DNA from: Calditrichota bacterium
Lineage (GTDB): Bacteria; Electryoneota; AABM5-125-24; Hatepunaeales; Hatepunaeaceae
Assembly (NCBI GenBank): GCA_016867835.1
Contig: VGIQ01000001.1
Span: forward strand, 10,094-74,093
DNA length: 64,000 nt
Reading direction: 5' to 3'
Each line of letters begins with the position of its first letter. The stretch's first letter is position 1. Made by a program: the position numbers and the translations under genes. Positions 17,367 through 40,382 of the stretch are shown piece after piece. The notes beneath the pieces are model-generated. The model made no database searches. It was given only the letters and a program-made list of their open reading frames with translations, and was not told where the DNA came from.

Positions 17367-17371
17367 TCCCG

Positions 17372-17875: not shown

Positions 17876-17899
17876 AGCGCCTTGTAATGGAAGAAAAGA

Positions 17900-18667: not shown

Positions 18668-18725
18668 CCACTAGGCACGCAAAGAGCGCCAAGAATTCTT
18701 TGTGGTCTTTGTGTTCTTGGTGGTA
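18661..18725. repeat. palindromic gene-junction repeat, copy 4
   Basis: AACTAACCACTAGGCACGCAAAGAGCGCCAAGAA ... TTCTTTGTGGTCTTTGTGTTCTTGGTGGT. Confidence 0.6.
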
Positions 18726-18738
18726 AAAAGAGGCCGAA

Positions 18739-20025: not shown

Positions 20026-20026
20026 A

Positions 20027-20068
20027 TGTAGAATGCAGAATGTAGAATGTAGAATGAGGAACGAGGGT
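20027..20068. repeat. short tandem repeat (GAATGTAGAAT)n
   Basis: gaatgtagaatgcagaatgtagaatgtagaatgaggaacgagg lies directly after the stop of the preceding gene. Confidence 0.6.
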
Positions 20069-20137
20069 TATTGCTTTGGAGGGGTATAGGTGTTATCTTT
20101 CAGAAAATCAGAATTTCTGAACGGTAGAGGGATTACA

Positions 20138-20407
20138 ATGAAAGTTCAACTACGTTCGAGACGCCAGATCACGCTTCCGGAAGAGGCGGTCAGCGAGTTG
20201 GGAATCAATGAGGGGGATGAGTTCATCGTGAAAGTCGAGGGCGATTCGCTGCGCCTGCTGCCGGTCGTTACCATTCCTCGGGATGAAGCCTATCTCTTCA
20301 CACCGGAATGGCAGAGGGCGCTTCAAACCGCCGAGAAGGAACTGCGCGAGGGCGAATACGAGACCTTCGCGAGCGTCGATGACCTGCTGAAGGACCTGAA
20401 CGACTGA
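20138..20407 (+). CDS. AbrB/MazE/SpoVT-family antitoxin
   Basis: MKVQLRSRRQITLPEEAVSELGINEGDEFIVKVEGDSLRLLPV is a swapped-hairpin AbrB-type motif. The ORF could start at 20090. Its stop overlaps the next start (ATGA). Confidence 0.6.
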   Translation: MKVQLRSRRQITLPEEAVSELGINEGDEFIVKVEGDSLRLLPVVTIPRDEAYLFTPEWQRALQTAEKELREGEYETFASVDDLLKDLND

Positions 20408-20673
20408 TGCAGATCATCCGGCTGAGTCAATTCAAGCGGATGTGGAAGAAACTGCCTGCGGACGTTCAGGCGAGGGCAGCGAAAGCGATCCGCCTGCTTG
20501 CCGCCGACCGGTCGCATCCGTCGCTTGGCTTGAAGCGGCTGCAACGGCTGCCTCAATACTTGGAGGTGCGCATCGACCGCGACCACCGGTTGATATGCCA
20601 GATGGGGAGCGAGGTTATCGTGCTGGTGGCGGTAGGGAGGCATGAGGTGTTGGGGAGGGTGAGGCAAAAGTGA
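20407..20673 (+). CDS. RelE/ParE-superfamily toxin (type II TA)
   Basis: 88-aa basic protein translationally coupled to the antitoxin. The pattern LPADVQARAAKAIRLLAAD ... YLEVRIDRDHRLI ... VLVAVGRHE resembles the RelE/ParE fold. Confidence 0.5.
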   Translation: MQIIRLSQFKRMWKKLPADVQARAAKAIRLLAADRSHPSLGLKRLQRLPQYLEVRIDRDHRLICQMGSEVIVLVAVGRHEVLGRVRQK

Positions 20674-20737
20674 AGCTAAACATCATCATTCCTTCGGAAG
20701 ATGGAATTCAGATCTACATTTCTTTGTAAAAACAGGA

Positions 20738-21742
20738 ATGAAGGCACTTTATTCAAATTGCATTTTCTGCGGCTGCGACTTAGACGAGACCAATAGATCT
20801 CGCGAGCATATCGTTCCACAGATCATAATGGGATCATTCATCAGTCAAGATGTCTGCAGATGCTGTAACAGCAAATTGAGCGAGGCGGATAAGCTTATAC
20901 TGAATGATCCACGGATTATTCAAGCTATAAACTGTCTTGAACTTTCTGATATTCAAAATAACATCCTGAGAATAGGTGAAACCATAGGAACAGATACACA
21001 GGATGGCGCCGAAAGAAGGTTTCATATGAAGGATGGGCACCCTATACTTATTCCCAAGCCATCTTTTACGGGTGAAAGAGTCGCGGATATAGATAACACC
21101 TTGCCTCTACTGCGCACATTGTTATCCAGAGACAAGGAGCTGAATTGGCCAAACGAAAAGGCAGGCCGATACATCGGTGAAATCGTAACGCCAGAATTTC
21201 TCAAACTCAAGCCGCATGAGAGTATCGATCTTCGAGAAGCGGGATACTCAATCGAAATGAGGCAGATTGGAAACATAGAGACACATTTTCCTGCCATTTC
21301 GTTTCAAGATCATAGATTGATCGCTAAAATAATATACGAGATCAGTTTCTATCTGCTTTCGCCCGAGATCGCTGAGTCAGCGATGAAAGATCTTGACTAT
21401 TATAGAGATGTAGCTTACGGAAGTATTGAAAGAGAAGAAGGCAGATTGTTTACAAGATCGGTGGAGCTTCTTAACGAACCCAACTATCTTCATAGGATTC
21501 AGATCTCATTCTCTGCCTCAAGCTTTCTTACGGTTGACATCGACCTCTTTGCAAGTGTAAACTATCACGCTATCATCAGAACTGATAGAACCTATCCGCT
21601 GCCAATTCTAAATTCCCGGCAGGTTACCGCTGTCGGGTTGGGGATGACCTTTAACGATACATCGAATAGACACTTTGCGATAAGGTACTTCAATGATGCA
21701 GATTGGGCGGTCGAAAGATTCGATGACGGAGAAGAACAGTGA
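20738..21742 (+). CDS. HNH-endonuclease-domain protein with ~270-aa uncharacterised C-terminal region
   Basis: CIFCGCDLDETNRSREHIVPQ ... CRCCNSKLSE is the HNH motif (CxxC, catalytic His in EHIVP, second CxxC). 334 aa. The region is markedly AT-richer than the window. Confidence 0.65.
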   Translation: MKALYSNCIFCGCDLDETNRSREHIVPQIIMGSFISQDVCRCCNSKLSEADKLILNDPRIIQAINCLELSDIQNNILRIGETIGTDTQDGAERRFHMKDGHPILIPKPSFTGERVADIDNTLPLLRTLLSRDKELNWPNEKAGRYIGEIVTPEFLKLKPHESIDLREAGYSIEMRQIGNIETHFPAISFQDHRLIAKIIYEISFYLLSPEIAESAMKDLDYYRDVAYGSIEREEGRLFTRSVELLNEPNYLHRIQISFSASSFLTVDIDLFASVNYHAIIRTDRTYPLPILNSRQVTAVGLGMTFNDTSNRHFAIRYFNDADWAVERFDDGEEQ

Positions 21743-22890
21743 CAATATCAACCCAAATGATCAATACTTGGACAGCTTCTTGGAAGCAACTGAGATACCT
21801 CGAGCGAGTGGGAGCATTACTTGCCATAGCAACTCTGACCGCCTCCTTATTTTATTGGGCGGGGAATGGATTCGCCGAGATACAAAATACACTTGGCTAC
21901 TATCCATCTGGAGTTGAAGAAGCGCTAGAGCAAAACCGCGAACTGGACCTAAAATATCCAACACGCCCGGGTCTAAGCAAGGATCTGGGAGAGGTTGCGG
22001 GAGTCTTGCTTTTCTTCATCGGAATTTGTCTAATCTTGTCATTGATTGATGCAGCCGTGAAATTGCCAATCTTGGCGGGATTGTTGGTCGCCCCAATATC
22101 TTTCCTATCGGGCAAGGGAACCACACATGAATACCTCATTCTATCCTTGCTCAACAATAACGCTATTGGTGGCAGAGGCGTGCTTTCACTTATCATGATA
22201 ACGCTTTCCGGAGTATTTGCGATGAGGGCTTTTCGGAAATCTTGGAGATTAAATTTCTCATTGCTAACTGCACTTGGAGTATTCGCGTCTTGGATAGGTA
22301 ATTTCATGGGTCAAGAATACAGCTATCGCGCCGGTATTTTGACGGCAGCTGCTGGAATTCTCCTTATCATAGCGCCAAAATCACTTAGGGATTCTTGTCT
22401 GACTTCCATCGAAGTGACTGGCGAAATATCTAAAGGTAGGCTTGACAGCTTGATTCAAAAAGCCACATTGTCTACCAGAATATTTGGCATTGCCTATTCT
22501 ATTCTTGGGCTTATTCTTGTTCTGGGAGTTGCAGGAACTATGGGAGATGAGTTTCTACAAGGAATCAAGAGAGGGGCACCTGTTAGTGATTCAAGCGGAA
22601 TCTTAGTGCTGGCCGTCATTCAGATATTGATAGGGATAGCTTTGCTTATGCTCTCTTTGATATCATCTAATCCAGCAATGCGGCGTCGATATCAGTTTTC
22701 CATCATCATAGGGATCATCTGGATCTTATTGCCTTATGAGGCACTTGACTTGTTAGCCCGATTGACCGATCCCGGCTTAAATGCTTTTGTAAAACTGTTG
22801 ACGTCTATTGGAATGATTATTGTACTCAAGACCGCAATTAGAGCTCGGGACGCCATTTATATGAATGTCAGCAATTCCAAGGAAACATAA
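21739..22890 (+). CDS. polytopic membrane protein (about 8-10 predicted TM helices), unknown function
   Basis: GTG start overlapping the upstream stop (GTGA). Repeated hydrophobic helices (VGALLAIATLTASLFYW, VLLFFIGICLILSLI, LPILAGLLVAPISFL, ILLIIAP, IFGIAYSILGLILVLGVAG, ILVLAVIQILIGIALLMLSLI, IIIGIIWILLPY, IGMIIVL). Low GC. Confidence 0.6.
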   Translation: MTISTQMINTWTASWKQLRYLERVGALLAIATLTASLFYWAGNGFAEIQNTLGYYPSGVEEALEQNRELDLKYPTRPGLSKDLGEVAGVLLFFIGICLILSLIDAAVKLPILAGLLVAPISFLSGKGTTHEYLILSLLNNNAIGGRGVLSLIMITLSGVFAMRAFRKSWRLNFSLLTALGVFASWIGNFMGQEYSYRAGILTAAAGILLIIAPKSLRDSCLTSIEVTGEISKGRLDSLIQKATLSTRIFGIAYSILGLILVLGVAGTMGDEFLQGIKRGAPVSDSSGILVLAVIQILIGIALLMLSLISSNPAMRRRYQFSIIIGIIWILLPYEALDLLARLTDPGLNAFVKLLTSIGMIIVLKTAIRARDAIYMNVSNSKET

Positions 22891-22911
22891 TCCGCATCAT
22901 TCGGAATACTA

Positions 22912-24204
22912 ATGTCCACCTACCCCACCGAACCCCTGAAGTGCTGGGCTAAAGCCAAGGAACTTCGGGATAACTACTATCGCGACTACGCCACCGCCCA
23001 CGAGTGCGGCGGGTTGCGCTGGACCGGCGGCGCTTGGTCGTTCGACGCCATCCCCGCCGGGCTAGGGCGCGACGTCTGGCCCATCACCGGCGAGCCTTAC
23101 GGCGCGTCGATGGCCTTCAACAAGCCATTCAGCCAGCGCGCCCTCGAAGCCGCCGAAGCCAAGGGCTGGGCGCGCGATCTCTGCAGTTATATGCGCAACT
23201 ACTGGGGGTCGATGTATCTCGACGAGTTCAACTTCGGCGGGAAGTATCCGAAGCCCGACTTCGCCTTTCAGGATCATATCTGCTGCTCCCACGCCAAGTG
23301 GTATCAGCATGTCGCGGAATACAAGCAGATCCCCTACTTTTGTATCGACGTTTCGGTCGGTCCCTATCACCTGATCGACGACCACAAACTGAACTTCGTC
23401 GTCGGGCAGATGCACGAGTCGATTGACTTCCTCGAGCGCATCACCGGCCGCCGCTACGACGACGAACTGCTGATCGAAGCGGTGCAGAACGAGACGCGAG
23501 CCACCTCCGCCTGGGCCGAGGTCTGTGCCCTCAACAAGGCGATCCCGGCACCGCTCGACGAAAAGACGATGTATTCGCTCTACGTCCTCGGGACGCTCAA
23601 CAAGTCGAAGAAGGAGTTCGCCGACTTCTACGAGGAATTGCGGGACGAGGTTGCCGACCGCGTGGCGCGCGGCATCGCTGCCGTTCCGAGCGAGCGTTGC
23701 CGGCTGATGTCCGATACCCAGCCGCCGTGGGGCTTCTTGAAGATATTCCGCTACCTCGAAGGCTTCGGCGCGGTCTCGGTCGGGAGCCTTTACACCTTCG
23801 CCCTAATCGGCATCTGGGAAGAGAAGCCGGACGGCAGTTGGGGCGCGCGGACAACTCCGATGGCCCTCGGCTTGCCGATGGATACCCGCGATCAGGCGCT
23901 CCGGATACTGGCGGACTGGAACCTCTCCAAACCCGAATGGCAGCATTTCTATGACGCAAGTTTGAAGTCGAAGATGATGCTGCGGATCGTCAAGGAATGG
24001 AAACTCGACGGCGTCATGCTGCACCTGAATCGCGGCTGCGAAGGCCTCTCCTGCGGCATAATGGAAAACCGCCTCGCCATCGCCGAAGCCGGCGTGCCGG
24101 TGATGACCTTCGAAGGCAATATGGGCGACGAGCGGGAGTTCGACGAAGCGAAGACCAAAGACCGCATGGATGCGTTCATGGAGACGCTGGGACTTAGGAA
24201 TTAA
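22912..24204 (+). CDS. 2-hydroxyacyl-CoA dehydratase / benzoyl-CoA reductase subunit family protein (HgdA/BcrC-like)
   Basis: [23 protein letters not shown] and [10 protein letters not shown] are Cys-motif regions typical of the HGD-D family. 430 aa. Confidence 0.65.
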
Positions 24205-24270
24205 CCACAAAGAACACAAAGATCACAAAGATATCCTGGTGCTCTTGGTGTGCTTTGTGGTGAGAATAAT
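24202..24270. repeat. palindromic gene-junction repeat, copy 5
   Basis: AATTAACCACAAAGAACACAAAGATCACAAAGA tatcc TGGTGCTCTTGGTGTGCTTTGTGGTGAG. Confidence 0.65.
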
Positions 24271-24286
24271 CATTAGGGATAGATAA

Positions 24287-25084
24287 TTGATTACAGCCGG
24301 ACTTGACCTGGGGTCGAAGACCACCAAGGTCGTCATCCTGCGCGACGGCGAAGTGCTGGCTCGCGTGAAGCGGTTTTCGGGGTTCGAACAAGAGGTCGTC
24401 GCGGCTGAAGCCTTGCGGGAAGCCTGCGCCCTCGCTGGCATCGCCGAGAGCGAACTGTCCCGTATCGCGGCAACCGGAGCCGGCCGCCGGGTAGCGCCAT
24501 TCGCGCAGGATCTCCTGACCGAGGTAGGCGCCGCGGCGCGGGGCGCCATCGCTCGCAACGACGCAGTGCGCACTGTGCTCGACGTTGGAGCCGAGGAAGG
24601 ACGCGCCATTCTGGTCAATCCCGACGGCCGGGTGAAGGACTTTGCGGTCAATGAGAAGTGCGCCGCCGGAGCGGGCACGTTTATCGAGTCGATGTCGCGC
24701 GCCCTCGAAGTGAAACTCGAGGAGTTCGGCCCGCTCGCGCTGACTTCGCAGCAGGCGGTGCCGATGAATGCCCAATGCGCAGTATTCGCCGAGAGCGAGG
24801 TGGTATCGCTGCTCCACGCCCGGACGCCGAAGCAGGACATCGCTCGCGCAGTGCTCGACGCCATCGCCAGCCGCATCGTCTCGATGGCCCGGCGAGTCAG
24901 CATCACACCGGCGGTCGTGCTAATGGGAGGGATGGCTCACAATACCGGCTTCATTGTATCGCTGAAGCGGACGCTCGAGATGGAGATCGAAATCCTATCC
25001 GATCCTGAGTTTGTCCCGGCCGAGGGAGCCGCGTTCCACGCCGCCGAGCGCTTTGCCGAAGCCGAAGTGCCGGCGGTGGCGTAG
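24287..25084 (+). CDS. BadF/BadG/BcrA/BcrD-type ATPase (dehydratase activator / reductase ATP-binding subunit), copy 1
   Basis: MITAGLDLGSKTTKVVIL is the acetate/sugar-kinase-fold N-terminus. NEKCAAGAGTFIE is the [4Fe-4S]-bridging Cys region. 265 aa. Non-ATG (TTG) start. Confidence 0.75.
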   Translation: MITAGLDLGSKTTKVVILRDGEVLARVKRFSGFEQEVVAAEALREACALAGIAESELSRIAATGAGRRVAPFAQDLLTEVGAAARGAIARNDAVRTVLDVGAEEGRAILVNPDGRVKDFAVNEKCAAGAGTFIESMSRALEVKLEEFGPLALTSQQAVPMNAQCAVFAESEVVSLLHARTPKQDIARAVLDAIASRIVSMARRVSITPAVVLMGGMAHNTGFIVSLKRTLEMEIEILSDPEFVPAEGAAFHAAERFAEAEVPAVA

Positions 25085-25085
25085 G

Positions 25086-25135
25086 AAGTAAGCGGGTAGG
25101 CGAGTAAGCGGGTAAGCGGGTAAGTGAACAGGCGG
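25086..25135. repeat. short tandem repeat (GTAAGCGG / GTAAGCGAG)n
   Basis: gtaagcgggtaggcgagtaagcgggtaagcgggtaagtgaac. An inverted copy of the motif lies at 25530-25550 (cttactcgcttactc). Confidence 0.6.
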
Positions 25136-25144
25136 GAGTAGAAA

Positions 25145-25521
25145 ATGGGGACGGTCTTCAGGAAGGTGGAGGATATAGAGGTCTGGAAGCGGGCATGCAG
25201 GCTTGCGGTCGATCTCTATTCCCTCTGCGATCAGGAGCCGCTCGCCAAGGATTGGGGGCTTCGAGATCAGTTGCGGCGTGCGGCAGTTTCCATTGCATCG
25301 AACATCGCGGAGGGATATGAGCGAAACTCGCAAGCGGAATTCAGGAGATATCTCTTGATCGCCAAAGGTTCCTGCGTGAATTGAAGACGCAACACTACAT
25401 CCTGCAGGCATCCGGTAAGATTAGCGAGGCAGATTTGACAACCCTGATCGAACGCTGCATAGAACTATCTCAGATGATCGGCAGCCTCGCCTCCGCCATT
25501 CGCAAACAACATCTTGCATAA
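25145..25521 (+). pseudogene. four-helix-bundle (23S rRNA intervening-sequence-type) protein gene with a -1 frameshift
   Basis: The ORF ends ...[16 protein letters not shown]. The conserved continuation [43 protein letters not shown] is in the next frame (shift at about 25375-25381). Confidence 0.5.
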
Positions 25522-25568
25522 TAACTAACGCTTACTCGCTTACTCATTCAAATCAACAACAGTCCGCA

Positions 25569-26459
25569 TTGGAGGAGTCAGCAATGTCAGTCGAATACTG
25601 GCGGTGGAAGGAATACAACTGGCGCAACGAAGCGGTCGATCCGCGCGGCGGAGGCATCCTCTCCGGAGGCGTCGATGTCGGATCGGTCTCATCGCAGGCG
25701 GTGGTGCTCTACGAAGGCAATCTCTACGCCTACAGCAATATGCGCACCGGCTCCGACTCGCCTGACAGCGCCCGCAAGGCGTTCGAGTGGGCGCTCGAAG
25801 GCACGGGACTGCAGGTTGGCGATATCCCCTTCATTGTCGGCACCGGTTACGGGCGGGTCAATGTGCCGTTTGCTCATAAAGCCATCACCGAGATTGCCTG
25901 TCATGCCCGCGGTGCCAATTATATGTATGGCCCGGCTGTCCGGACGCTGCTCGATATGGGCGGGCAGGACTGCAAGGCGATCCGCTGCGACGAACGGGGC
26001 AAGGTGACGAACTTCCTGATGAACGACAAGTGCGCTGCCGGGACCGGACGCGGGATGGAAGTCTTTGCCGATTTACTCGCAATCCCCATTGAGCAGGTCG
26101 GCGAAATGTCGTTCCAGGTCGAGAGCGAGCCGACGCCGGTCTCTTCGACCTGTGTCGTCTTCGCCAAGACCGAAGCCGCCGGGCTGCTCCGGTCCGGCTG
26201 GCCGAAGAACCTTGTCCTCGCGGCCTACTGCTCGGCGATGGCGCATCGCGTCGTTTCGCTGATCGAGCGGCTCGGTATGGAAGGCGGGTTCGCGATCACC
26301 GGCGGCATTGCCAAGAACAGCGGCGTCGTCCGGCGCCTCGAAAAGGAACTCGGCGTTACCTCGATGACCAGTTCCTACGACACTCAGATCGCGGGTGCGC
26401 TCGGCGCGGCACTATTTGCGAAGGCGCTGCTTGAGAAGGGCTTGGGGCTCAAGGCTTAG
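25569..26459 (+). CDS. BadF/BadG/BcrA/BcrD-type ATPase, copy 2 (distinct paralogue)
   Basis: GVDVGSVSSQAVVL and NDKCAAGTGRGME. 296 aa. The likely start is ATG at 25584 (MSVEYW). Confidence 0.75.
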   Translation: MEESAMSVEYWRWKEYNWRNEAVDPRGGGILSGGVDVGSVSSQAVVLYEGNLYAYSNMRTGSDSPDSARKAFEWALEGTGLQVGDIPFIVGTGYGRVNVPFAHKAITEIACHARGANYMYGPAVRTLLDMGGQDCKAIRCDERGKVTNFLMNDKCAAGTGRGMEVFADLLAIPIEQVGEMSFQVESEPTPVSSTCVVFAKTEAAGLLRSGWPKNLVLAAYCSAMAHRVVSLIERLGMEGGFAITGGIAKNSGVVRRLEKELGVTSMTSSYDTQIAGALGAALFAKALLEKGLGLKA

Positions 26460-26484
26460 GGCTCAAGATCACTCAAGGGGTGAG

Positions 26485-26870
26485 ATGATGTCAAGGGACT
26501 ACCGGAAACTTCGGGTATTTCGATCGGCGCAAAGTCTTGCCCTTATGGTCTATGAATCGACCAGACTATTTCCAAATGAAGAGTTGTTCGGAGCAACGAA
26601 CCAATTGCGCCGGGCAGCGCTATCAGTTCCAACTAACTCCGTTGAGGGCTCTCATCGCACCAGTCGCGGAGATTGCTTGAGATTCCTCGACGTTGCGATG
26701 GGGTCGCTTGCAGAAACTGGATACCTGATCGACTTCGCTGCCAGTCTCGGCCATTTGCCGCAAGACAAACGGGACAATCTGCTTGCCCAATAGACTGAAT
26801 GCGCCCAACTCCTCGGCGCGCTTATCAATTCACACCGCAGGGCGAATGATTCCAAAATTCTTAAGCCCTG
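26485..26870 (+). pseudogene. second four-helix-bundle (IVS-type) protein gene, interrupted by an in-frame TAG at 26791-26793
   Basis: MMSRDYRKLRVFRSAQSLALMVYE ... NSVEGSHRTSRGDCLRFLDVAMGSLAETGYLIDFA is the family core. The reading frame continues after the TAG (TECAQLLGALIN...) as the expected C-terminal helix. Confidence 0.45.
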
Positions 26871-26905
26871 AACCTTAAGCCTTAAGCCCTAAGCCATGAG
26901 CCTAA
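26860..26905. repeat. short tandem repeat (CTTAAGCC)n
   Basis: cttaagccctgaaccttaagccttaagccctaagccatgagcc. Confidence 0.6.
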
Positions 26906-26906
26906 T

Positions 26907-27188
26907 ATGATCGCCAACTACGGCTACACCGATGGATCGGGCAGTTACTACATCACTATCGACACCGACCGATGTGCCACCTGCGCCGAACACTCCTGCA
27001 CCCAAGCCTGTCCGGTTGGGATGTTCGTCGTCGAGCCGGACGACTATGACGATGACGTCGCCTCGATAGGCACCACCTTCCGGCACAACATCAAGTATGC
27101 CTGCGCACCCTGCAAGCCGGTAGCAAATCGGCCGCCGCTGCCTTGCGCAGCGGCTTGCAAAGCCGGCGCAATAAGCCACTCGTGGTAG
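26907..27188 (+). CDS. ferredoxin-like Cys-rich protein (8 Cys; probable 2x[4Fe-4S])
   Basis: CATCAEHSCTQACP plus CAPC ... CAAAC. 93 aa. Sits directly upstream of a ferredoxin-oxidoreductase-like gene. Confidence 0.55.
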   Translation: MIANYGYTDGSGSYYITIDTDRCATCAEHSCTQACPVGMFVVEPDDYDDDVASIGTTFRHNIKYACAPCKPVANRPPLPCAAACKAGAISHSW

Positions 27189-27189
27189 T

Positions 27190-27252
27190 GGCAAGTATTA
27201 AGTATCAAGTGCCAAGTATCAAGTATCAAGTGCCAAGTATCAAGTATCAAGT
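27190..27252. repeat. short tandem repeat (CAAGTATCAAGTG)n
   Basis: gtatcaagtgccaagtatcaagtatcaagtgccaagtatcaagtatcaagtgtcaagtg. The same motif occurs at 29735-29770 and 61823-61852. Confidence 0.7.
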
Positions 27253-27257
27253 GTCAA

Positions 27258-29732
27258 GTGGGCCGGATAACCATTGTTGTTGATGGGCGGGAGGTCGAGG
27301 TTCAGACGGGCGGCCGCCTGAGACTCGAACTGATCGCGTCCGGCATCTACTTGCCCGGACTGTGCGATCATCCCGACCTTGATCCATTTCGGCCCTTCCA
27401 ATGGTCTGAATCGGTCTGGCGGGGAAATGCAGAATACGGAATGAGGAATGAGGAAGGCGGACTTGATGATGGAACACTGCATTCCAGCCACCTCAATCCG
27501 CACTGCGACCTCTGTCTGGTCTCCATTGAGGGCGTCGGGCTGGTGCGGTCGTGCGATGCGATCGTCCGCGAGGGAATACGCGTCCGGACTAATGGCGACG
27601 ATATCACCCGGGCGCGTCGAGACGCTTTGAAGGCGATCCTCGCCCGTCATCCCCACGCCTGCCTTACCTGCGCCCAACGGCACGGCTGCGACCGACTCAG
27701 TTGCAGCATGAACGTTCCGGTCCTCGAACGCTGCTGTGAATTGCTGGGCCGCTGCGAGATCGGCCGGGTCTCGGAGTGGGTAGGCATCCCTCCTGATACG
27801 CCTCCCTATCGCAATGAAGGTCGTCCTGCCGTAATCGATGAACCGCTCTACCTGCGCGACTACGAACTTTGCATTAGTTGCACCCGCTGCGTCCGCATAT
27901 GCCGCGACGTCCGCGGCGTCGATGCGCTCGGCGCGTCGATCGTCAAATCGGGTGTTGTCGTCGGGACGAACGAACCGACACTTGCCGACTCGGACTGCCG
28001 CTTCTGCGGCGCCTGTGTCGAAGTTTGCCCCACCGGCGCCTTGCGCGACAAGCCCGGGATAGCGCCTCTGATAGAAGGGCAGGCGCCTTGCGTGGAATCG
28101 TGCCCGCTCGGTATCGACATCCCCGGCTACCTCGCTGAAATCGCGGCTGGTCGTCCTTTGAATGCGTTAGAGATCATTCGCGACCGCGCTGCGCTGCCGG
28201 GCGTGCTCGGCTACGCCTGCTTTCATCCCTGTGAAGCGAACTGCCGCCGGACGGCGCTCGGCGAGCCAGCCTCGATCTGCCTCCTGAAGCGGTTCGCCAG
28301 CGACGTTGCAAGCGAATGTGAAGTCCACGCGCCTAAAGTGCCTCCGTCCGGTCGCCGGGTGGCCATCGTCGGCTCCGGGCCGGCCGGTCTGGCCGCTGCC
28401 TATGACCTCTTGCGGATGGGCCATGCGGTCACGGTCTTCGACCGCAATGCCCGCCCCGGAGGGATGCTCCGTGAAGCGATTCCCAACTTCCGTCTGCCCG
28501 ATGCGGTCATCGACCGCGATCTGAAATATCTCAAAGACCTGGGAATGGGTTACCACCCCGGCGGGGAGTTGGGACGCGATTTCACTCCTGAAGACCTGCA
28601 CGATTTGAATTTCGACGCTCTGTTAGTGGCAATAGGGCTGAGTCAGACTGCCCGGCTCGGTGTGCCCGGCGAAGAGCATCCTGCAGTAATTAGAGGGCTT
28701 GACTTTCTAAGGTCCATTTCAAGCGGGAATCCCCCCGAACTGGAGGGTGATGTCATTGTGGTGGGCGGAGGCGCGGTGGCGGTCGACTGTGCGATGAGCG
28801 CGCTCCGGGTTGGCGCGTCGAATGTCCGCATGGTCTGCCTTGAAAGCCGTGAAGAGATTCCGGCGCATCCCGACGAACTCCGTCTGGCGCAGGACGAGGG
28901 GATCGCCATCGATTACGGCTGGGGCGTCGAGTCATTCAACGTCCGGGACGACGAATTGACCGGTATCCGACTGAAGAAGTGCACCCGCGTCTTCGACCCC
29001 GCCGGTCGGTTCAGCCCGCTCTATGATACTACGACCACGAAAGACCTCCCCGTCCGGAGTGTGATCGTCGCCATCGGGCAACGGCTTGGGATAGACCGCC
29101 GGTTTCTGACCGGTAAGGGATTGTTCACTTGCGGGGATATGGTTACCGGACCGACGACCATCGTCGAAGCGATGGCGGATGGACGTCGCGCCGCACGAGA
29201 GGTTGACCGGTTTCTGGGCGGCAAGGGCGAAGTGTCGAAGAGTATTGCCAGGTCAGCCGGGGGCAGCCTTGGTCGCATCGGCGGCTTTGCAAGCCTTGAC
29301 CGCTCACACCCTCTGGAACAGCCTGTTTCGGAGCGCACCACCAACTTCGACCCGATCCAGGTCGGCTTCGACGATAGTGCAGCCCGCCTGGAAGCAAGCC
29401 GCTGCCTGCAGTGCCATTTGCGCGCCAGGATCAGTCCCTCACCTTTGCCTCCGGATGAATGGCGCCGGTTCAAACCCGAAATGGTTGACGACGTGCCGGC
29501 ACTCGAGGGCGTCCTGATTCTTGCCGATGCCGACCGCAAGACGATTCGTATTAGCGGCGCCTCGGACCTGAGAACCCTCTTCCGTGAAGCCCACCACGAA
29601 AATCCCGATGCCGTATGGTGCCGGTGGGAGATAGATCCGCTCTATACCAAACGGGAGTCGGAACTCCTCGCGGCGCATCTGGCTGCGCACGGCGCGATGC
29701 CGGTGTCGGGGGAATTGGATGATCTCTTCTGA
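27258..29732 (+). CDS. multidomain iron-sulfur flavoprotein: NuoG/HoxU-like 2Fe-2S N-terminus + 2x[4Fe-4S] ferredoxin + GltD/NfnB-like FAD/NAD(P)H oxidoreductase (candidate ferredoxin:NAD(P)H oxidoreductase)
   Basis: GTG start. N-terminal GRITIVVDGREVEV ... CDHPDL. 4Fe-4S motifs CISCTRCVRICRD and CRFCGACVEVCPTG. Dinucleotide folds RVAIVGSGPAGLAAAYDL and VIVVGGGAVAVDCAMSA. 824 aa. Confidence 0.65.
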   Translation: MGRITIVVDGREVEVQTGGRLRLELIASGIYLPGLCDHPDLDPFRPFQWSESVWRGNAEYGMRNEEGGLDDGTLHSSHLNPHCDLCLVSIEGVGLVRSCDAIVREGIRVRTNGDDITRARRDALKAILARHPHACLTCAQRHGCDRLSCSMNVPVLERCCELLGRCEIGRVSEWVGIPPDTPPYRNEGRPAVIDEPLYLRDYELCISCTRCVRICRDVRGVDALGASIVKSGVVVGTNEPTLADSDCRFCGACVEVCPTGALRDKPGIAPLIEGQAPCVESCPLGIDIPGYLAEIAAGRPLNALEIIRDRAALPGVLGYACFHPCEANCRRTALGEPASICLLKRFASDVASECEVHAPKVPPSGRRVAIVGSGPAGLAAAYDLLRMGHAVTVFDRNARPGGMLREAIPNFRLPDAVIDRDLKYLKDLGMGYHPGGELGRDFTPEDLHDLNFDALLVAIGLSQTARLGVPGEEHPAVIRGLDFLRSISSGNPPELEGDVIVVGGGAVAVDCAMSALRVGASNVRMVCLESREEIPAHPDELRLAQDEGIAIDYGWGVESFNVRDDELTGIRLKKCTRVFDPAGRFSPLYDTTTTKDLPVRSVIVAIGQRLGIDRRFLTGKGLFTCGDMVTGPTTIVEAMADGRRAAREVDRFLGGKGEVSKSIARSAGGSLGRIGGFASLDRSHPLEQPVSERTTNFDPIQVGFDDSAARLEASRCLQCHLRARISPSPLPPDEWRRFKPEMVDDVPALEGVLILADADRKTIRISGASDLRTLFREAHHENPDAVWCRWEIDPLYTKRESELLAAHLAAHGAMPVSGELDDLF

Positions 29733-29780
29733 GACTCCAAGTATCAAGTATCAAGTGTCAAGTATCAAGAGCAGAGAGCA

Positions 29781-30272
29781 ATGAAACGTAAAGCGCCGCT
29801 TCCGCCCGGCCTCATTATTCGCAATCTGCGTCGGGAAGACAAGGTTCGCCTGATAGAACTCGACGCCCAATTGACCGGCCTCCGGCGCGACCTCTATTAC
29901 GACCGTAAGTTTCGCCGCTTCTTCGGGGAAGACGCGCCTATCCTGCTCGGCCTTGTGGCTGAAGCCGCAGGCCGGCTTGTCGGGTATATTCTGGGCGAAG
30001 TCAATACCGGCGAATATGGCATAATGCAGCCGGTCGCGTCGGTCGATACGATCGGCGTCGATCCGCAATATAAGCGGACCGGCGTCGGGCGGACGCTGCT
30101 CGAAGAATACTGCGCCGTCGCGGCCAAAGCCGGCGTCGAGACGATGACGACGCTCGTCTCTGAAGACTGGCCCGAAGTGATCTCCTTCTTTAAGGAGCGC
30201 GGCTTCCATCCGGCGAAACTGGTTGCGTTCGAGCGGGAACTCCCGCGTGAGGGGCTCTTTGGCCGCGGATAA
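29781..30272 (+). CDS. GNAT-family N-acetyltransferase
   Basis: IGVDPQYKRTGVGRTLLEEY is the acetyl-CoA-binding motif A. 163 aa. Confidence 0.75.
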   Translation: MKRKAPLPPGLIIRNLRREDKVRLIELDAQLTGLRRDLYYDRKFRRFFGEDAPILLGLVAEAAGRLVGYILGEVNTGEYGIMQPVASVDTIGVDPQYKRTGVGRTLLEEYCAVAAKAGVETMTTLVSEDWPEVISFFKERGFHPAKLVAFERELPREGLFGRG

Positions 30273-30354
30273 CCTGCAACCGCCCCGGGCAGCGCTGCTC
30301 GACGGCTGGGAGCCGAGGTTCATCGGCAGCGAACCGCGACTCAGCGAGGTCGCC

Positions 30355-30483
30355 GGAATGTATCGCGAAATCGGCTTCGAGGTGATGATCGTCCCTTTCG
30401 ACCCGGTAGAGTGCGAAGGCTGCTGCAAGGAGTGCTTCAGCGAAGGCGAGTCGGGGGCGATGGTAGTCTATACGAAGAAGTGA
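30355..30483 (+). CDS. small Cys-rich ORF (42 aa; CEGCCKEC) of unknown function
   Basis: MYREIGFEVMIVPFDPVECEGCCKECFSEGESGAMVVYTKK. A longer ORF from 30223 overlaps the GNAT gene in another frame. Weak call. Confidence 0.2.
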   Translation, partial: GMYREIGFEVMIVPFDPVECEGCCKECFSEGESGAMVVYTKK

Positions 30484-30590
30484 GCGAGTAAGTGAGTAAG
30501 CGAGTAAGCGAGACATTTTCGCCTATGCTCCCACAAACTCGGCTGCCCGCACACTCGTTCACTCGTCTACTCGCTCACTCGCACACTTTC
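30481..30590. repeat. inverted pair of (GAGTAAGC)n short tandem repeats flanking a 36-bp spacer
   Basis: gagtaagtgagtaagcgagtaagcgag ... cactcgttcactcgtctactcgctcactcgc. Confidence 0.6.
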
Positions 30591-30613
30591 CATATTATTA
30601 AGAGTAAGGACTT

Positions 30614-31648
30614 ATGAAGGCAGCAATTTTTTATGGGCCGCATCAACCTCTGCGCATCGAAGACGTCCCGATGCCGGTCGCCGGCCCGGGTGAGTTGTTG
30701 GTCAAAGTTGCCGCTTGCGGGCTTTGCCACACCGACCTACACTACCTCGACCACGGCGTCCCGACGTTCAAGACGCCGCCTCTGATCCTGGGTCACGAAG
30801 CATCCGGGACCGTCGCCGCATTGGGCACTGGCGTCAAGGGTTGGAACGAAGGCGACCGGCTCCTCCTGCCCGCCGTGTTAACCTGCGGCGTATGCCGGAA
30901 CTGCCGGGAGGGGCGCGAAAACATCTGCGACGATATGCGGATGTTCGGCAACCACCTCGACGGCGCCTTTGCTGAGTACGTGGTTGCGCCAGCTAAGGAC
31001 GCGCTCCATCTGCCCGACGCGGTGCCGCTGATCGAGGGGTCGATTATCGCCGACGCAGTTTCGACGCCATTCCACGCGGTGGTGAATCGTGGCGCCGTGA
31101 AACCAGGCGACCGGGTAGCGGTCTTCGGCTGTGGCGGGGTAGGAATCAACTGCGTGCAAATCGCTGCCGCGCAAGGAGCGGTCGTGGTAGCGGTCGATAT
31201 CGCGCCGGAGAAACTGGAACTGGCGCGGCAGTTCGGCGCGGCGCACACCATTGATGCTTCGACAGTCGAGGGCGGGCGCTTCGACAAAGCCATGCGGAAA
31301 CTTCTCGGCGACGGCGTCGATGTGGCGTTCGAGGCCATCGGCAAGCCGGAGACGATCCAGGCGGCGTTCTCGACCCTGCGCAAGGGCGGACGCTGCATCC
31401 TGATCGGTTACACCAATCAAACGGTCGAACTGCCTGCAGCGAAGATCATGTTCTTCGAGCAGGGCATCACCGGATCGCTCGGCTGCCGGCCGGTCGATTA
31501 TCCCCGCATCATCGACATGGCAGCAACGGGGCGAATCAAGGTGAAGGAACTGGTAACCGGTCGCTATCCGCTAGAACAGATCAATGAGGCGTTCGAAGAA
31601 CTGCGCCGCGGCGCGCCGCAGGTGATCCGGCTGGTGGCGGTTCCTTAG
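30614..31648 (+). CDS. Zn-dependent alcohol dehydrogenase (MDR family; candidate hydroxyacyl-CoA dehydrogenase)
   Basis: CGLCHTDLH is the catalytic Zn motif. The structural Zn Cys cluster (CGVCRNCREGRENIC) and GCGGVGIN cofactor fold are present. 344 aa. Confidence 0.85.
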   Translation: MKAAIFYGPHQPLRIEDVPMPVAGPGELLVKVAACGLCHTDLHYLDHGVPTFKTPPLILGHEASGTVAALGTGVKGWNEGDRLLLPAVLTCGVCRNCREGRENICDDMRMFGNHLDGAFAEYVVAPAKDALHLPDAVPLIEGSIIADAVSTPFHAVVNRGAVKPGDRVAVFGCGGVGINCVQIAAAQGAVVVAVDIAPEKLELARQFGAAHTIDASTVEGGRFDKAMRKLLGDGVDVAFEAIGKPETIQAAFSTLRKGGRCILIGYTNQTVELPAAKIMFFEQGITGSLGCRPVDYPRIIDMAATGRIKVKELVTGRYPLEQINEAFEELRRGAPQVIRLVAVP

Positions 31649-31664
31649 CGAGCGGAATAGAACC

Positions 31665-32165
31665 GTGTCCGACCAGCGACTCTCCGCCATTATGTTCACC
31701 GACATCGTCGACTACACAAGCAAGATTCGCATCGATGAAGCAAAAATGCTGCGCCTGCTGGAGGTGCACAACCGGATGCTGCGCGAGATTTTCGACCGGC
31801 ACGAAGGCGAGGTCGTCAAGGGCACCGGGGACGGCTTTCTGGCGCGCTTCAACAGCGCGACCAGCGCGGTTCTGGCGGCATTGGAGATCCAGAAGGACCT
31901 GACTGAATACAATCGGGGGAAGCCGGACCACGACCAGATTGAGGTGCGCATCGGCGTTCATCTGGGGGACATCGTCATTCGGGAGGGCGATGTTTTCGGC
32001 GACGGCGTCAACGTGGCGGCGCGGGTGCGGCCCCTCGCGGTGCCGGGCGGCATCTGCATCACTCGCGCCATCTACGATGTGGTGCACAAGAATATGGGGC
32101 AGGAAGTTTATCCGTTTGGTAAGAAACGTCTAAAAGGACTTGATATTACTGGGGGCAGTTTATAG
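31665..32165 (+). CDS. stand-alone class III adenylate/guanylate cyclase catalytic domain protein
   Basis: AIMFTDIVDYTS ... KGTGDGFLARF ... RIGVHLGDIV matches the cyclase homology domain. 166 aa, GTG start, no sensor domain. Confidence 0.7.
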   Translation: MSDQRLSAIMFTDIVDYTSKIRIDEAKMLRLLEVHNRMLREIFDRHEGEVVKGTGDGFLARFNSATSAVLAALEIQKDLTEYNRGKPDHDQIEVRIGVHLGDIVIREGDVFGDGVNVAARVRPLAVPGGICITRAIYDVVHKNMGQEVYPFGKKRLKGLDITGGSL

Positions 32166-32419: not shown

Positions 32420-32476
32420 CAGTAGGGCAGGCATTCCTGCCTGCCCTTTGGACGGACAAGAATGTCCGTCCTACTG
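32420..32476. repeat. composite REP-like element (GGGCAGGCATTCCTGCCTGCCC + GGACGGACAAGAATGTCCGTCC)
   Basis: Same hairpin family as 12982-13050. Confidence 0.7.
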
Positions 32477-32555
32477 ATGCTACTATTTGATGCCCCGATT
32501 AATAATAGGATTTTCCTCTCACCCAATCCTTATTAATAACTGCAGAAAAGCGTTG

Positions 32556-32640
32556 CCTTGGCAGGGGGCGGACATTCTTATCCGCCCCCTGCCAAGACGA
32601 GCTTCCAATTCAGGGCGGACAGGAATGTCTGCCCTCCAAG
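32556..32640. repeat. composite REP-like element (long hairpin CTTGGCAGGGGGCGGACATTCTTATCCGCCCCCTGCCAAG + GGGCGGACAGGAATGTCTGCCC)
   Basis: 16-bp perfect stem. Same family. Confidence 0.7.
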
Positions 32641-34853: not shown

Positions 34854-35447
34854 ATGACGCAACATCCAGCCTCTATCATGGCCGGTGGGAACTCGTTACG
34901 TATGGGCTTCCCGAAGGCAATGCTCACCAAAGAGCGCGAGCCGGTGCTCCGGCTGATGGCGGAGGCTCTGAAACGGTGCGGCTGGACGTTGTCGTCGGTT
35001 GTGGTCGCCACCGAAGACCTTGCCGAATGGGTGCACTGGACGCTCGACCGGCCTCTGGTCATCGTCAACGACCGGCCCGAGCGCGGCCCGATCAGTTCCT
35101 TACGGCTGGCTCTGAACTCCCTGCCGGCGGGAGCGCCCGGTTTGCTTATCTGGCCGGTCGATCACCCCGTCATCAAGGACGGGACATTGCTGAGCATTCA
35201 GCGCGCCGCCAATGCCGTCAACGCCGTCGTGCCGCTCTTCGCAGGTCGTCGCGGTCATCCGGTCTGGTGGGGACGGCAGACCTTTCGGCATCTGAAGAGC
35301 CGGATTGCCAATGGCGGCGCCCGCAAGGTGCTCTATCTGCCGGCAGTCAACGTCTGCGAGGTCGAGGTTGACGATCCGGGAGTTCTGGTCAACATCGACA
35401 CTTCGGAGGATGCGGAAAGGTATGGTCTTCAAGGGGCGAGCGAGTGA
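34854..35447 (+). CDS. MobA/MocA-like molybdenum cofactor nucleotidyltransferase
   Basis: IMAGGNSLRMGFPKAML matches the LAGGxSxRMG signature. 197 aa. Confidence 0.6.
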   Translation: MTQHPASIMAGGNSLRMGFPKAMLTKEREPVLRLMAEALKRCGWTLSSVVVATEDLAEWVHWTLDRPLVIVNDRPERGPISSLRLALNSLPAGAPGLLIWPVDHPVIKDGTLLSIQRAANAVNAVVPLFAGRRGHPVWWGRQTFRHLKSRIANGGARKVLYLPAVNVCEVEVDDPGVLVNIDTSEDAERYGLQGASE

Positions 35448-36235
35448 GCGAGTATTTGGTAGAAGTAGCGAGACGAATTGAGGCTGGGGAGCGGTTTGCG
35501 TTGGTAACCATCGTCAAAGCGACCGGCTCAACGCCGCGCAAGGAAGGCAGCCGGATGCTCGTCGATCCCGCCGGGGACGTCGTCGGGTCGGTCGGTGGAG
35601 CTGCGGTTGAACGGCTCGCCATCCTGAAGGCTCTCGAAGCCATGGCATCGGGGCAGATATCCCGGCTCGAACTAAGCCTGAATGACCTCGAAGCGGTTGA
35701 GACCGGCATGATCTGCGGTGGGCGGGTCGAATTGCTGATCGAGCCGTTCGGCACCGGTCCGGCTCTGCACCTCTTCGGAGCCGGACACGTCGCTCAGCCG
35801 ACGGCGCGGCTCGCCGTTGACCTCGGCTTATCGGTAACGATCTATGACGAGCGTCCCGAGTGGGCTTCCGCCGGGAGATTTCCCCGCTGCCGAATCGTAA
35901 CCGGCCGGTATGAAGACCTGGCCGATGCGCTAATGTCAGCACCCGATGACTTGATCGCCATAATGACCCATTGCCACGCCGACGACTACCGGGTCCTGAC
36001 GCGAGTGGCGCGAAAGCCCTGCCGATACCTCGGAGTCATAGGCAGCCCCCGGAAATCTCTGGAAATTAAGAAACGGCTTTCCGATGACGGCTTCTCAAAG
36101 GATGAAATTGCCCGCATCGAATGCCCCATTGGGCTCGACATAGGATCGCACACACCGGTCGAGATTGCCATTGCCGTCGCCGGGCGGCTGGTGCAAGTGA
36201 GGGCTTCAGGCTCTCAGCCGGTGGCTCTGGAATGA
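35444..36235 (+). CDS. XdhC/CoxI-family molybdenum hydroxylase accessory protein
   Basis: RFALVTIVKATGSTPRKEGSRMLV N-terminal domain. Rossmann-like LHLFGAGHVAQ. Confidence 0.75.
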   Translation: MSEYLVEVARRIEAGERFALVTIVKATGSTPRKEGSRMLVDPAGDVVGSVGGAAVERLAILKALEAMASGQISRLELSLNDLEAVETGMICGGRVELLIEPFGTGPALHLFGAGHVAQPTARLAVDLGLSVTIYDERPEWASAGRFPRCRIVTGRYEDLADALMSAPDDLIAIMTHCHADDYRVLTRVARKPCRYLGVIGSPRKSLEIKKRLSDDGFSKDEIARIECPIGLDIGSHTPVEIAIAVAGRLVQVRASGSQPVALE

Positions 36236-40289: not shown

Positions 40290-40382
40290 AGTTCCTTAAG
40301 ATAATGGTGGATCTATTCGCTCCATTATCTTCCCCCCACCGCTCGCCTCTTATACTACTGGCAGATTGTAGTTGCCATTCCT

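Follow-up and report, generated by a model that had tools for sequence, protein, structure and literature searches.

This report concerns a 64,000-nucleotide stretch of DNA from a Calditrichota bacterium (the window: positions 10,094 to 74,093 of contig VGIQ01000001.1, assembly GCA_016867835.1) and the short tandem repeats at its gene junctions. About half of these junction repeats are probably the two arms of foldback cassettes built like the intervening sequences of 23S rRNA. A cassette has one array of 6- to 9-nt units after the upstream stop codon and a reverse-complement array before the next start, with either a small gene inside, coding for a four-helix-bundle protein or a GxxExxY protein of the PD-(D/E)XK type, or a short loop alone. 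The paired arms form a long, periodically mismatched stem, and comparison of gene order shows the cassettes to be insertions in a conserved benzoyl-CoA-type operon, in which the spacers between cistrons are otherwise very short. A first-pass annotation of the same DNA had recorded junction repeats but not the CACAAAGAN family, further inverted pairs, or the enclosed genes; the organizing fact that it overlooked is the inverted pairing around genes of the rRNA-intervening-sequence type.

Tandem Repeats Finder (TRF; score of at least 40, period of 6 to 24) reports 19 short-unit arrays across the 64-kb window, whereas 30 Markov-2 simulated windows averaged 1.7 and none had more than 5. Of the 19 arrays, 15 are mainly intergenic, with intergenic DNA making up 7.7% of the window on a curated gene map (binomial p = 6e-14). 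A further three are at a gene end or on an over-extended start call, and the array at 38957-38984 is the only one truly inside a gene; at least eight unrelated repeat units occur in the 64 kb. The claim of the first-pass annotation that short tandem arrays gather at gene junctions beyond chance is borne out by this enrichment, and TRF recovers arrays where it had placed them, at 7297-7337, 25088-25136, 27187-27259, 29738-29769, 61826-61853, 26860-26903, 20024-20056, 40950-40983, and 41922-41952. What it described as repeats of a 13-mer, CAAGTATCAAGTG, is a genuine array but of a different unit, being a run of the 7-mers CAAGTAT/CAAGTGC, and its (GCCAATG)n array at 41780-41883 is likewise present but as a 6-mer (ATGCCA) that spans 41826-41862 only. 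The array at 35433-35455 is weak, a match of two copies only, and those at 37865-37890 and 57671-57700 fall under the TRF threshold.

Spacer reading and an inverted-repeat scan place about half of the window arrays in inverted pairs of one 6- to 9-nt unit, at 14232/14272, 16886/17334, 17827/degenerate partner, 18667/18696, 24204/24233, 25088/25529, 26439/26860, 30479/30548, 40830/40950, and 41826/41922, with arm complementarity of 78 to 91% in the scan. One of these, 30479-30512 with 30537-30587, is an inverted pair as previously noted (78% complementary), and the pairs 25088/25529, 26439/26860, 16886/17334, 40830/40950, and 41826/41922 had been passed over. Folded as single strands, the short pairs give long hairpins (z of -2.5 to -6.4), compared with z near 0 for unpaired arrays. 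Three inverted pairs surround decayed small genes, and the others are empty.

Two of the three enclosed genes code for four-helix-bundle proteins and lie in the operon of BcrAD-type genes (features are on the plus strand unless stated otherwise). The 5' arm of cassette 1, (GTAAGCGR)5-6 at 25088-25136 (TRF), starts 3 nt past the stop of BcrAD gene 1; it is followed by the cargo gene at 25145-25520 (PF05635, E 2e-34; TIGR02436, E 2e-33), which has a frameshift at about 25372, and by the 3' arm (CGCTTACT)2 at 25529-25545 (TRF). In cassette 2, the 5' arm (GGCTYRRG)3-4 at 26439-26467, found by the inverted-repeat scan, overlaps the final 21 nt of BcrAD gene 2, and the 3' arm (CTTAAGCC)n at 26860-26903 (TRF) stops 3 nt ahead of the ferredoxin ATG; the arms are 85 to 91% complementary and about 403 to 413 nt apart. 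Its cargo at 26485-26850 (PF05635, E 4e-24, and also TIGR02436) has an in-frame TAG at 26794 that cuts off the end of helix 4, with homology running on beyond the stop. The third is a GxxExxY pseudogene at 16925-17325, for which three-frame translation reveals a frameshift near 17165 and no start codon; the reconstructed protein matches TIGR04256 (E 5e-38) and belongs to the PD-(D/E)XK fold family PF13366. It lies between a 5' arm (CACAAAGNN)3 at 16886-16912 (inverted-repeat scan) and a 3' arm (TCTTNGTGN)3 with a GTGGT end at 17334-17362 (TRF and inverted-repeat scan), and these arms fold at -35 kcal/mol when a linker connects them. Flank duplex z values for the three cargo cassettes run from -3.5 (cassette 1) to -5.8 (cassette 2). 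The cargo defects are real, because an independent Illumina-based short-read contig (L001, from SRR16108672) is 100% identical across 24203-27229.

The host genes form a benzoyl-CoA-reductase/2-hydroxyacyl-CoA-dehydratase-type operon with beta-oxidation-like genes, and the same gene order is found in metagenome-assembled genomes of LCP-89, the FCB (Fibrobacteres-Chlorobi-Bacteroidetes) group, Ignavibacteriales, Anaerolineae, and Latescibacterota. The nearest relatives of the operon are uncultured Anaerolineales, LCP-89, Latescibacterota, and FCB-group genomes, and the BcrA-like protein has its best relatives among GTDB species representatives at 75% identity, in several phyla. In the window, 499 nt separate BcrAD1 from BcrAD2 and 447 nt separate BcrAD2 from the ferredoxin gene; in the syntenic operons L003, L007, L009, and L012 both spacers are about 0 to 40 nt, and the cassettes are therefore insertions.

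The largest array family consists of five (CACAAAGAN)3 arrays, at 14232, 16886, 17827, 18667, and 24204, the second of which is the 5' arm of the GxxExxY cassette. The hairpin at 14232-14298, with (CACAAAGAN)3, a 13-nt loop, and (NTCTTYGTG)3, has arms that are 85% complementary and an RNA fold of -26.5 kcal/mol (z -5.0), and it begins on the final base of the TAA stop of an enoyl-CoA hydratase gene. At 17827-17880 the 5' arm (CACAAAGNN)3 is intact and the 3' arm degenerate (weak fold, z -1.25), and at 18667-18724 the 5' arm is degenerate and the 3' arm (TCTTTGTGG)3 intact (-32.4 kcal/mol, z -6.4). An empty (CACAAAGAN)3/(CTYKGTG)3 hairpin occupies the HGD-D/BcrAD junction at 24204-24261 (fold z -4.5). 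The hairpin at 30479-30587, with (AGTAAGCG)4, a loop of about 35 nt, and (CTCRCTCA)5, folds at -47.3 kcal/mol (z -6.1) and is unchanged in a second sample. Two pairs of 6-mer arrays are on the minus strand: ATGCCR/ATCAKC at 40830-40983 (fold z -3.6), which contains a GC-rich hairpin and sits between convergent genes, and a long hairpin at 41826-41952 of (ATGCCA/ATGTCA)6 and (TCAGCA)5 (-45.3 kcal/mol, z -2.5). Intrinsic termination was considered as a role for the tandem-array hairpins and rejected, since none is called as a terminator in 13000-32000, no T-run follows the stem, and terminator calls in that region are not above shuffle expectation (15 versus 17.4). An Rfam search that covered rRNA gave no match at the gathering threshold in the window and, at E of 1 or less, one spurious miRNA match to another hairpin; no rRNA or tRNA was found in the window.

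The same layout is present at other four-helix-bundle genes. Two intact ones stand at other junctions of the same operon in an LCP-89 genome (L003), between arms (CAGTTGG)6 with (CTAAWCC)4 and (TTTCKAG)3 with (CTCGMAA)4, and an intact one in an Ignavibacteriales genome (L012) lies between AGTACGA and TCGTAAT arms. The inverted heptamers of the first LCP-89 cassette are visible by eye, but its duplex shuffle z is +1.6 and the 6-mer test misses it, so strict counts underestimate degenerate cases. Empty hairpins in the order stop, array, loop, inverted array, start occur in unrelated operons of Desulfobacterales and Betaproteobacteria. A tblastn search of plasmids with the window four-helix-bundle protein returned 29 records, and seven of the eight plasmid loci examined have inverted tandem 7- to 8-mers, the unit being different in each; several of the plasmid genes have host genes in the same direction on both sides, such as cas10/cmr2 and cmr3 in Picosynechococcus. 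One of the eight loci, from Azospirillum lipoferum (L210), lies inside 23S rRNA (Rfam LSU, 1108 bits) and is therefore a genuine intervening sequence, with arms (AGAGGAC/GGATGAC)n against (GTCCTCT/GTCATCC)n. The series from intact genes (L003, L012, and plasmids) through the pseudogenes of the window and a 170-nt remnant (L146) to empty hairpins is one of progressive decay.

A scan of IMG/VR with a four-helix-bundle protein alignment added 46 loci, and 52 dereplicated four-helix-bundle genes from plasmids, metagenome-assembled genomes, and viral contigs were compared with 982 control genes. A flanking tandem array of at least three units accompanies 40 of the 52, compared with 43 of the 982 controls, and a strict same-period reverse-complement tandem pair is found at 19 of the 52, compared with 2 of 982 (p = 1e-24). 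A looser flank screen, for shared reverse-complement 6-mers, has among its top control hits two RAYT-like Y1 transposase genes with REP (repetitive extragenic palindromic) palindromes, and the recovery of these two genes shows that flank screening of this type detects known hairpin-gene systems. They are IS200-like Y1_Tnp genes flanked by REP palindromes, at 19778-20260 of L003 and 4274-4816 (minus strand) of L009, and REP/RAYT and tandem-array cassettes thus coexist in LCP-89 and FCB-group genomes.

On plasmids GxxExxY genes too lie between co-directional housekeeping genes, such as fabD-fabG in Sphingomonas and radA and its neighbor in Bacteroides finegoldii, and their flanks consist of 8- to 9-mers of one type, C-R-C-R-R-A-G. 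The unit is CACAGAGGA in B. finegoldii, where the ends read ACCAC...GTGGT, CACAGAG in Bernardetia, CGCAGAGGA in Gemmatirosa, CGCGAAGGA in Sphingomonas, and CTTTGTG at an IMG/VR locus (L266), and the CACAAAGAN family that holds the window GxxExxY pseudogene belongs to the same CRCRRAG type. Such tandems flank 5 of 11 GxxExxY genes, none of 59 four-helix-bundle genes, and 1 of 982 controls (p = 4e-5). This layout holds generally for both small-gene families, in different phyla as well as in a true rRNA intervening sequence. A core conserved across phyla needs a cause other than slippage of private units, and CRCRRAG-type units would be tied specifically to GxxExxY nucleases, which may recognize them.

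A CACAAAG search pattern with 23 specified bases (ACCACAAAG-N1-2-CACAAAG-N1-2-CACAAAG) has three matches in the window, where none is expected, the hairpins at 14232 and 24204 among them, and occurs in at least 120 contigs of JGI metagenomes (L086-L205) from soils, sediments, and wetlands, with GC of 0.32 to 0.72. Among the matches listed, to which the counts in this paragraph refer, most are F-loop-R hairpins, with forward (CACAAAG)n, a loop, and reverse (CTTTGTG)n, and the inner segment has a median of 21.5 nt. A pair at L130 encloses an intact PF13366 gene (E 5e-38), and one or two of the 120 loci carry a GxxExxY gene. The spacers between CACAAAG cores are equal in length in both arms in 71 of 80 cases, and their nucleotides are Watson-Crick complementary in 45%, a slight excess over the 38% expected from composition. 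The hairpin ends carry a palindromic extension, T[CA]ACCAC...GTGGT[GT]A, which continues in 65, 45, and 26 of 67 hairpins at 1, 2, and 3 nt, and direct duplication of the flanks is essentially absent (1, 0, and 1 of 67 at the same lengths). Some loci have the reverse order, with CTTTGTG before CACAAAG arrays, and at others the arms are several kilobases apart (L140, 116...4399), as if bracketing whole genes. The same contigs contain about 270 other tandem-unit families, including CACGAAG, CGCGAAG, and CACAGAG variants. In L189, a 1,044-amino acid (aa) open reading frame (ORF) at 10768-13935 has a weak GxxExxY-like match (E 7e-7) and abuts (CTTTGTG)3; it may be a fusion protein with a nuclease domain.

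These distributions contradict the lineage-specific mechanism that the first-pass annotation had suggested, since the layout is shared by Cyanobacteriota, Bacteroidota, Alphaproteobacteria, Gemmatimonadota, LCP-89, Ignavibacteriales, and Desulfobacterales, and the CACAAAG unit of the window itself recurs in at least 120 metagenome contigs at GC of 32 to 72%. They are relevant also to the idea that the arrays are protein-binding platforms, either for IHF/HU-type global regulators, as suggested for Geobacter metallireducens, or for S1/Csp/CsrA-type proteins, as suggested for TAACTGA repeats, with opposite-strand pairs that would bend or loop nucleic acid. The retention of the CACAAAG core across GC of 32 to 72% among the matches listed is what a sequence-specific binder would bring about, paired repeats in Geobacter metallireducens have been read as sites of a global regulator (PMC2700814), and three loci that are about 82% identical overall (L234, L235, and L244) have cassette arms, GGTTTTAGGGTGTAGGGTGTA and AACCCTACACCCTAAAACC, that are identical in all three, which hints at constraint on the arms. 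Nonetheless, we consider binding platforms improbable, since at least eight unrelated units in 64 kb and private units elsewhere would call for a separate regulator per site, it is complementarity and not sequence that is conserved within a pair, and nothing in this idea predicts a tie to two small-gene families.

An unlikely but more substantial alternative is that the elements are non-autonomous and mobile at the DNA level, as hairpins like REPINs (REP doublets) that are moved in trans as single-stranded DNA by an encoded nuclease, the RNA structure being incidental; for the CRCRRAG family the GxxExxY protein would act in the manner of a RAYT, the REP-associated tyrosine transposase. A gene inside inverted copies of a motif that also occurs as dispersed empty hairpins is the RAYT/REPIN layout, five copies of one family in 10 kb and at least 120 metagenome contigs would suit such mobility, and the GxxExxY protein has the PD-(D/E)XK nuclease fold. 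Target-site duplication is absent, as in IS200/IS605 and REP elements, no sense-strand wobble bias is seen, the F-loop-R hairpins are strand symmetric, and the flank screen recovered true Y1_Tnp/REP genes in L003 and L009. However, GxxExxY proteins have no known activity, and a GxxExxY gene is present at only one or two of the 120 CACAAAG matches listed. The four-helix-bundle proteins share the layout yet have no nuclease or transposase motif, and the idiosyncratic units of their cassettes argue against recognition in trans. This alternative is largely compatible with intervening-sequence-like cassettes, the main difference being whether the hairpin matters as DNA or as RNA.

For cassettes of the intervening-sequence kind, the course of events can be sketched by analogy with rRNA, in which RNase III cuts the stem formed by the terminal inverted repeats and leaves the rRNA fragmented yet functional (PMC4990558); in Coxiella the cut is at the start of the first heptamer (PMC4990558). 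In the operon transcript, RNase III would cut the stem, and/or the stem would draw the flanking cistrons together, so that the insert is tolerated. The arms would grow and shrink by whole-unit slippage of a short unit, and since slippage is the fastest way for mutation to lengthen a stem, it would account for the private unit of each four-helix-bundle cassette. The empty hairpins would be cassettes after loss of cargo, or non-autonomous copies, and the CRCRRAG core would be conserved most simply through sequence-specific recognition by the associated GxxExxY nuclease.

Several points weigh against this account. Processing of the operon cassettes by RNase III is argued by analogy, and the host RNase III gene is not in the window. 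When folds are compared for G·U wobble, the sense strand folds better in 4 of 10 window hairpins and 10 of 19 cassettes elsewhere, whereas the true rRNA intervening sequence does have a sense-fold bias (-80 versus -60 kcal/mol); with sense and antisense folds equal on average, RNA-level selection is not established, and a DNA-level, REPIN-like role is possible. The hairpin ends have no target-site duplication or other footprint of known transposition, the strict inverted pair accompanies 37% of four-helix-bundle genes and not all, and about 10 solo arrays, or some half of those in the window, have neither an inverted partner nor a predicted structure. We know of no catalytic activity for four-helix-bundle proteins.

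The positions of the arrays, directly after stops and before starts, could also be understood if they were host-beneficial intercistronic RNA elements that evolved in place for transcript stabilization, differential decay, or translational coupling, the genes being secondary passengers. Among the matches listed, a long ORF ends within 30 nt upstream of 38% of CACAAAG arms, compared with 8% of random positions, and transcript stabilization and translational coupling have been proposed for the hairpins of cyanobacterial short tandemly repeated repetitive (STRR) sequences (PMC2670836). There is little probability in this explanation, given that syntenic operons in five other metagenome-assembled genomes have spacers of about 0 to 70 nt and no hairpins, and that plasmids, rRNA, and junctions of convergent genes also have the elements. 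Lacking a T-run, they do not qualify as intrinsic terminators, and the statistical tie to PF05635 and PF13366 genes would go unexplained.

Variation in copy number was compared between two samples in which the organism of the window is present, SRR16108672 and SRR7990334, at the level of contigs. Copy numbers of eight arrays are identical in the two; contig L083 (SRR7990334) differs from window positions 16035-19609 by six substitutions, all in the thiolase gene, and by no indels, and contig L085 matches 29740-31095 exactly. The absence of indels between the samples indicates that array copy numbers are stable at this scale. Between relatives, whole-unit changes do occur: loci L220 and L221 share 95.6% identity, with a single gap of one heptamer (7 nt) in the 3' arm, and Coxiella strains have two or three GACAGAT heptamers in their intervening sequence (PMC4990558). 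The ends of short-read contigs coincide exactly with arrays, at 24203, 27229, 29740, and 19609, which is consistent with multi-copy sequence and means in practice that short-read assemblies of this organism break at the arrays.

The first-pass annotation had interpreted the repeats as slippage-prone spacers with possibly phase-variable expression, and of this the slippage finds support in the whole-unit changes seen in relatives. Contingency loci, in which slippage-prone repeats would switch the expression of neighboring genes or serve as recombination hotspots, are nevertheless very unlikely here. Such loci would account for whole-unit differences between relatives, as in L220 and L221 and in Coxiella, and for contig breaks that coincide with the arrays, and a slippage origin has been suggested for the abundant heptanucleotide repeats (PMC4679880, PMC4692102). 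But the arrays are placed after one stop codon and ahead of the following start in an operon, outside reading frames and promoter spacers, and copy numbers are the same in both samples for all eight arrays, across 16035-19609 and 29740-31095, neither of which suits phase variation. The neighbors are central catabolic enzymes and not surface or virulence functions, and inverted pairing with enclosed genes is not expected of contingency loci.

The solo arrays include one family of three. The longest member, (CAAGTAT/CAAGTGC)10 at 27187-27259 (TRF), fills the junction of the ferredoxin gene and a gene for an 824-aa oxidoreductase; it has no reverse-complement array anywhere in the window and no structure (z -0.2). 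(CAAGTAT)4.6 at 29738-29769 is in direct orientation relative to it, and (TCAAGTG)4 at 61826-61853 belongs to the same family (both TRF). TRF also reports (GAATGTA)4.7 at 20024-20056, overlapping the stop of HGD-D gene 1, a solo array of the GTAAGCGR family at 7297-7337 (fold z +1.2), and, on the minus strand, (CACTCTT)3.4 at a divergent junction (51839-51862). A search of the window for partners of the GAATGTA, CAAGTAT, and CACTCTT arrays found none. Solo arrays could be half-elements that have lost one arm. The (CAAGTAT)n arrays, at 27194-27250 and 29719-29768, also present a sigma-70-like ladder on the minus (antisense) strand, TTGATA-17-GATACT with 9 of 12 positions matching, which may simply result from the repeat or may give rise to antisense transcription.

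Other insertions and repeats occur in the same region. The (GAATGTA)4.7 array is the left edge of a 2.9-kb block of low GC (20090-22890; 47 to 53%, compared with about 60% for the window) between two HGD-D subunit genes that are 25 to 70 nt apart in relatives; it codes for a MazE-like antitoxin, a ParE-like toxin, and an HNH-domain protein, and it also has a 383-aa ORF that matches nothing in Pfam or NCBIfam. An intact DUF559 gene (15265-15702; Vsr-like endonuclease fold) is inserted between short-chain dehydrogenase/reductase (SDR) and thiolase genes, its end overlapping the thiolase start. L003 and L012 have four-helix-bundle cassettes at this SDR/thiolase junction, and the idea that the L003 and L012 genes at one junction are orthologues was rejected, as they have no BLASTP similarity.

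Three copies of a C7-GCTTAGC-G7 hairpin fill the spacer before the DUF559 gene (15072-15259), and the same hairpin is found in each 39-bp unit of an in-frame repeat (19559-19700, 3.6 copies; fold z -7.7) within the gene for an HGD-D (BcrB/C-like) subunit (ORF 18739-20025). This repeat is translated as (SPPLSGREVREDK)n and constitutes a 54-aa insertion that is absent from the orthologues in L003, L009, L012, and L059 and is reminiscent of Rickettsia palindromic elements. A separate REP-like family consists of doublets of the palindrome GGACAGGCATTCCTGCCTGTCC at 12978-13053, 32424-32635, and 40382-40456; they fold very strongly (z -6.3 and -10.3) and fit REP better than the tandem arrays do, and the third copy lies within a probably spurious 132-aa ORF (40304-40702), which matches no family. 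Two 34-bp units between two genes at 2369-2434 each have a hairpin GATGCTGAC...GTCAGCATG (fold z -1.8).

Beyond the window, we advance only tentatively, and with the balance somewhat against it, the proposal that selfish intervening-sequence cassettes, foldbacks with arms of tandem 7- to 9-mers and a four-helix-bundle or GxxExxY gene, are pan-bacterial and invade both rRNA helices and intercistronic spacers because their stem allows the host RNA to shed or tolerate them, that their arms and empty derivatives make up much of the intergenic heptamer excess, and that the CACAAAG/CRCRRAG hairpins are a cross-phylum non-autonomous family recognized by GxxExxY proteins. If true, the excess so explained would cover STRRs, Xanthomonas and Nostoc heptamers, Geobacter paired sites, and Beggiatoa-type repeats. 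Intergenic heptamer repeats have been on record since 1990, when STRRs were described, and, to our knowledge, the annotations "four helix bundle protein" and "GxxExxY protein" denote very large families with no known role. If the link holds, these repeats and both protein families would be joined as components of a single type of insertion element, the rRNA intervening sequence would become a concept that applies to messenger RNA as well, and a simple annotation rule would be available for such inserts and their remnants inside operons. Heptanucleotides are the most abundant class of long simple-sequence repeats in prokaryotes (cited in PMC4679880 and PMC4692102), and the function of intergenic heptamer repeats is still called unknown (PMC2670836, PMC4679880, PMC4692102). 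Heptamers have been noted in the single Coxiella intervening sequence (PMC4990558), and our literature search, which may have missed subscription journals and database family notes, found no paper on a general link between intervening-sequence genes and inverted tandem arrays.

Among known systems, the cyanobacterial STRRs are like the window arrays in having tandem units of about 7 bp, in intergenic or intercistronic positions, that form hairpins (PMC2670836); those between hupS and hupL are 7-bp repeats that form hairpins and have no known function (PMC2670836). Four-helix-bundle genes on Nostoc, Calothrix, and Geminocystis plasmids are flanked by STRR-like heptamer arrays, and we found no paper tying STRRs to intervening-sequence-type genes. 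The canonical STRR units CCCCAGT, TTGGTCA, and CAACAGT are not tandem in the window, and STRRs belong to heterocystous cyanobacteria, whereas the gene content here is an anaerobic benzoyl-CoA-type operon. G. metallireducens has 24, 21, and 8 opposite-strand pairs of tandem octa- or heptanucleotides at variable distance (PMC2700814); by their description these comprise several families of three to five tandem 7- to 9-nt units, in spacers that include that of the proB-proA operon, but they are read as IHF/HU sites and enclosed small genes are not reported (PMC2700814). The Geobacter units GTTGCTYN, TCTCCGTS, and MTYCTGA are not tandem in the window.

GGGAATC in Xanthomonas and GGGGAYT in Nostoc (PMC4692102), and TAACTGA in Beggiatoaceae, Cyanobacteria, and Bacteroidetes (PMC4679880), are about 90% intergenic, lie near the end of the upstream ORF, form some inverted pairs, and have a patchy phylogenetic distribution that suggests horizontal spread (PMC4692102, PMC4679880). 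These families have one dominant unit per genome and the window has many; G-quadruplex or regulator-binding roles have been proposed for them, and gene cargo is not described. None of the repeat units named in the literature is tandem in the window. REP/REPIN-RAYT systems (PMC3116915) resemble the window in their intergenic hairpin doublets at gene 3' ends, in a small gene flanked by the motif, in empty copies that far outnumber gene-bearing ones, and in the lack of target-site duplication. However, a REP is a single imperfect palindrome of about 20 to 35 nt and not a set of tandem 6- to 9-mers, and RAYT cargo is an HUH Y1 transposase and not a four-helix-bundle or PD-(D/E)XK protein; the RAYT genes of L003 and L009 are flanked by REPs, not tandem arrays, and no Y1_Tnp was found among the window ORFs scanned. 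An assignment as miniature inverted-repeat transposable elements was rejected, since terminal inverted repeats are present but target-site duplication is essentially absent at 67 CACAAAG hairpins among the matches listed.

The 23S rRNA intervening sequences of Coxiella burnetii, Leptospira, Xanthomonas, and Brucella carry the same cargo family (PF05635/TIGR02436), and, as in the window cassettes, their ORF is enclosed by a long stem of terminal inverted repeats. They too have tandem heptamers in the arms (two or three of GACAGAT in Coxiella, AGAGGAC/GGATGAC in Azospirillum), a decaying cargo ORF, and a unit number that varies between strains; the Coxiella element has a 28-bp inverted-repeat stem, is excised by RNase III, and has its heptamers upstream of a decaying S23p ORF (PMC4990558). 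Intervening sequences sit in helix 9, 25, or 45 of 23S rRNA and the window cassettes between protein-coding cistrons, so the latter were rejected as rRNA intervening sequences proper on the ground of location; excision by RNase III, demonstrated for the former, would be expected of the latter, and many window copies have no ORF, unlike the long rRNA intervening sequences. The window elements are thus like intervening sequences, while being assigned to none of the families compared.

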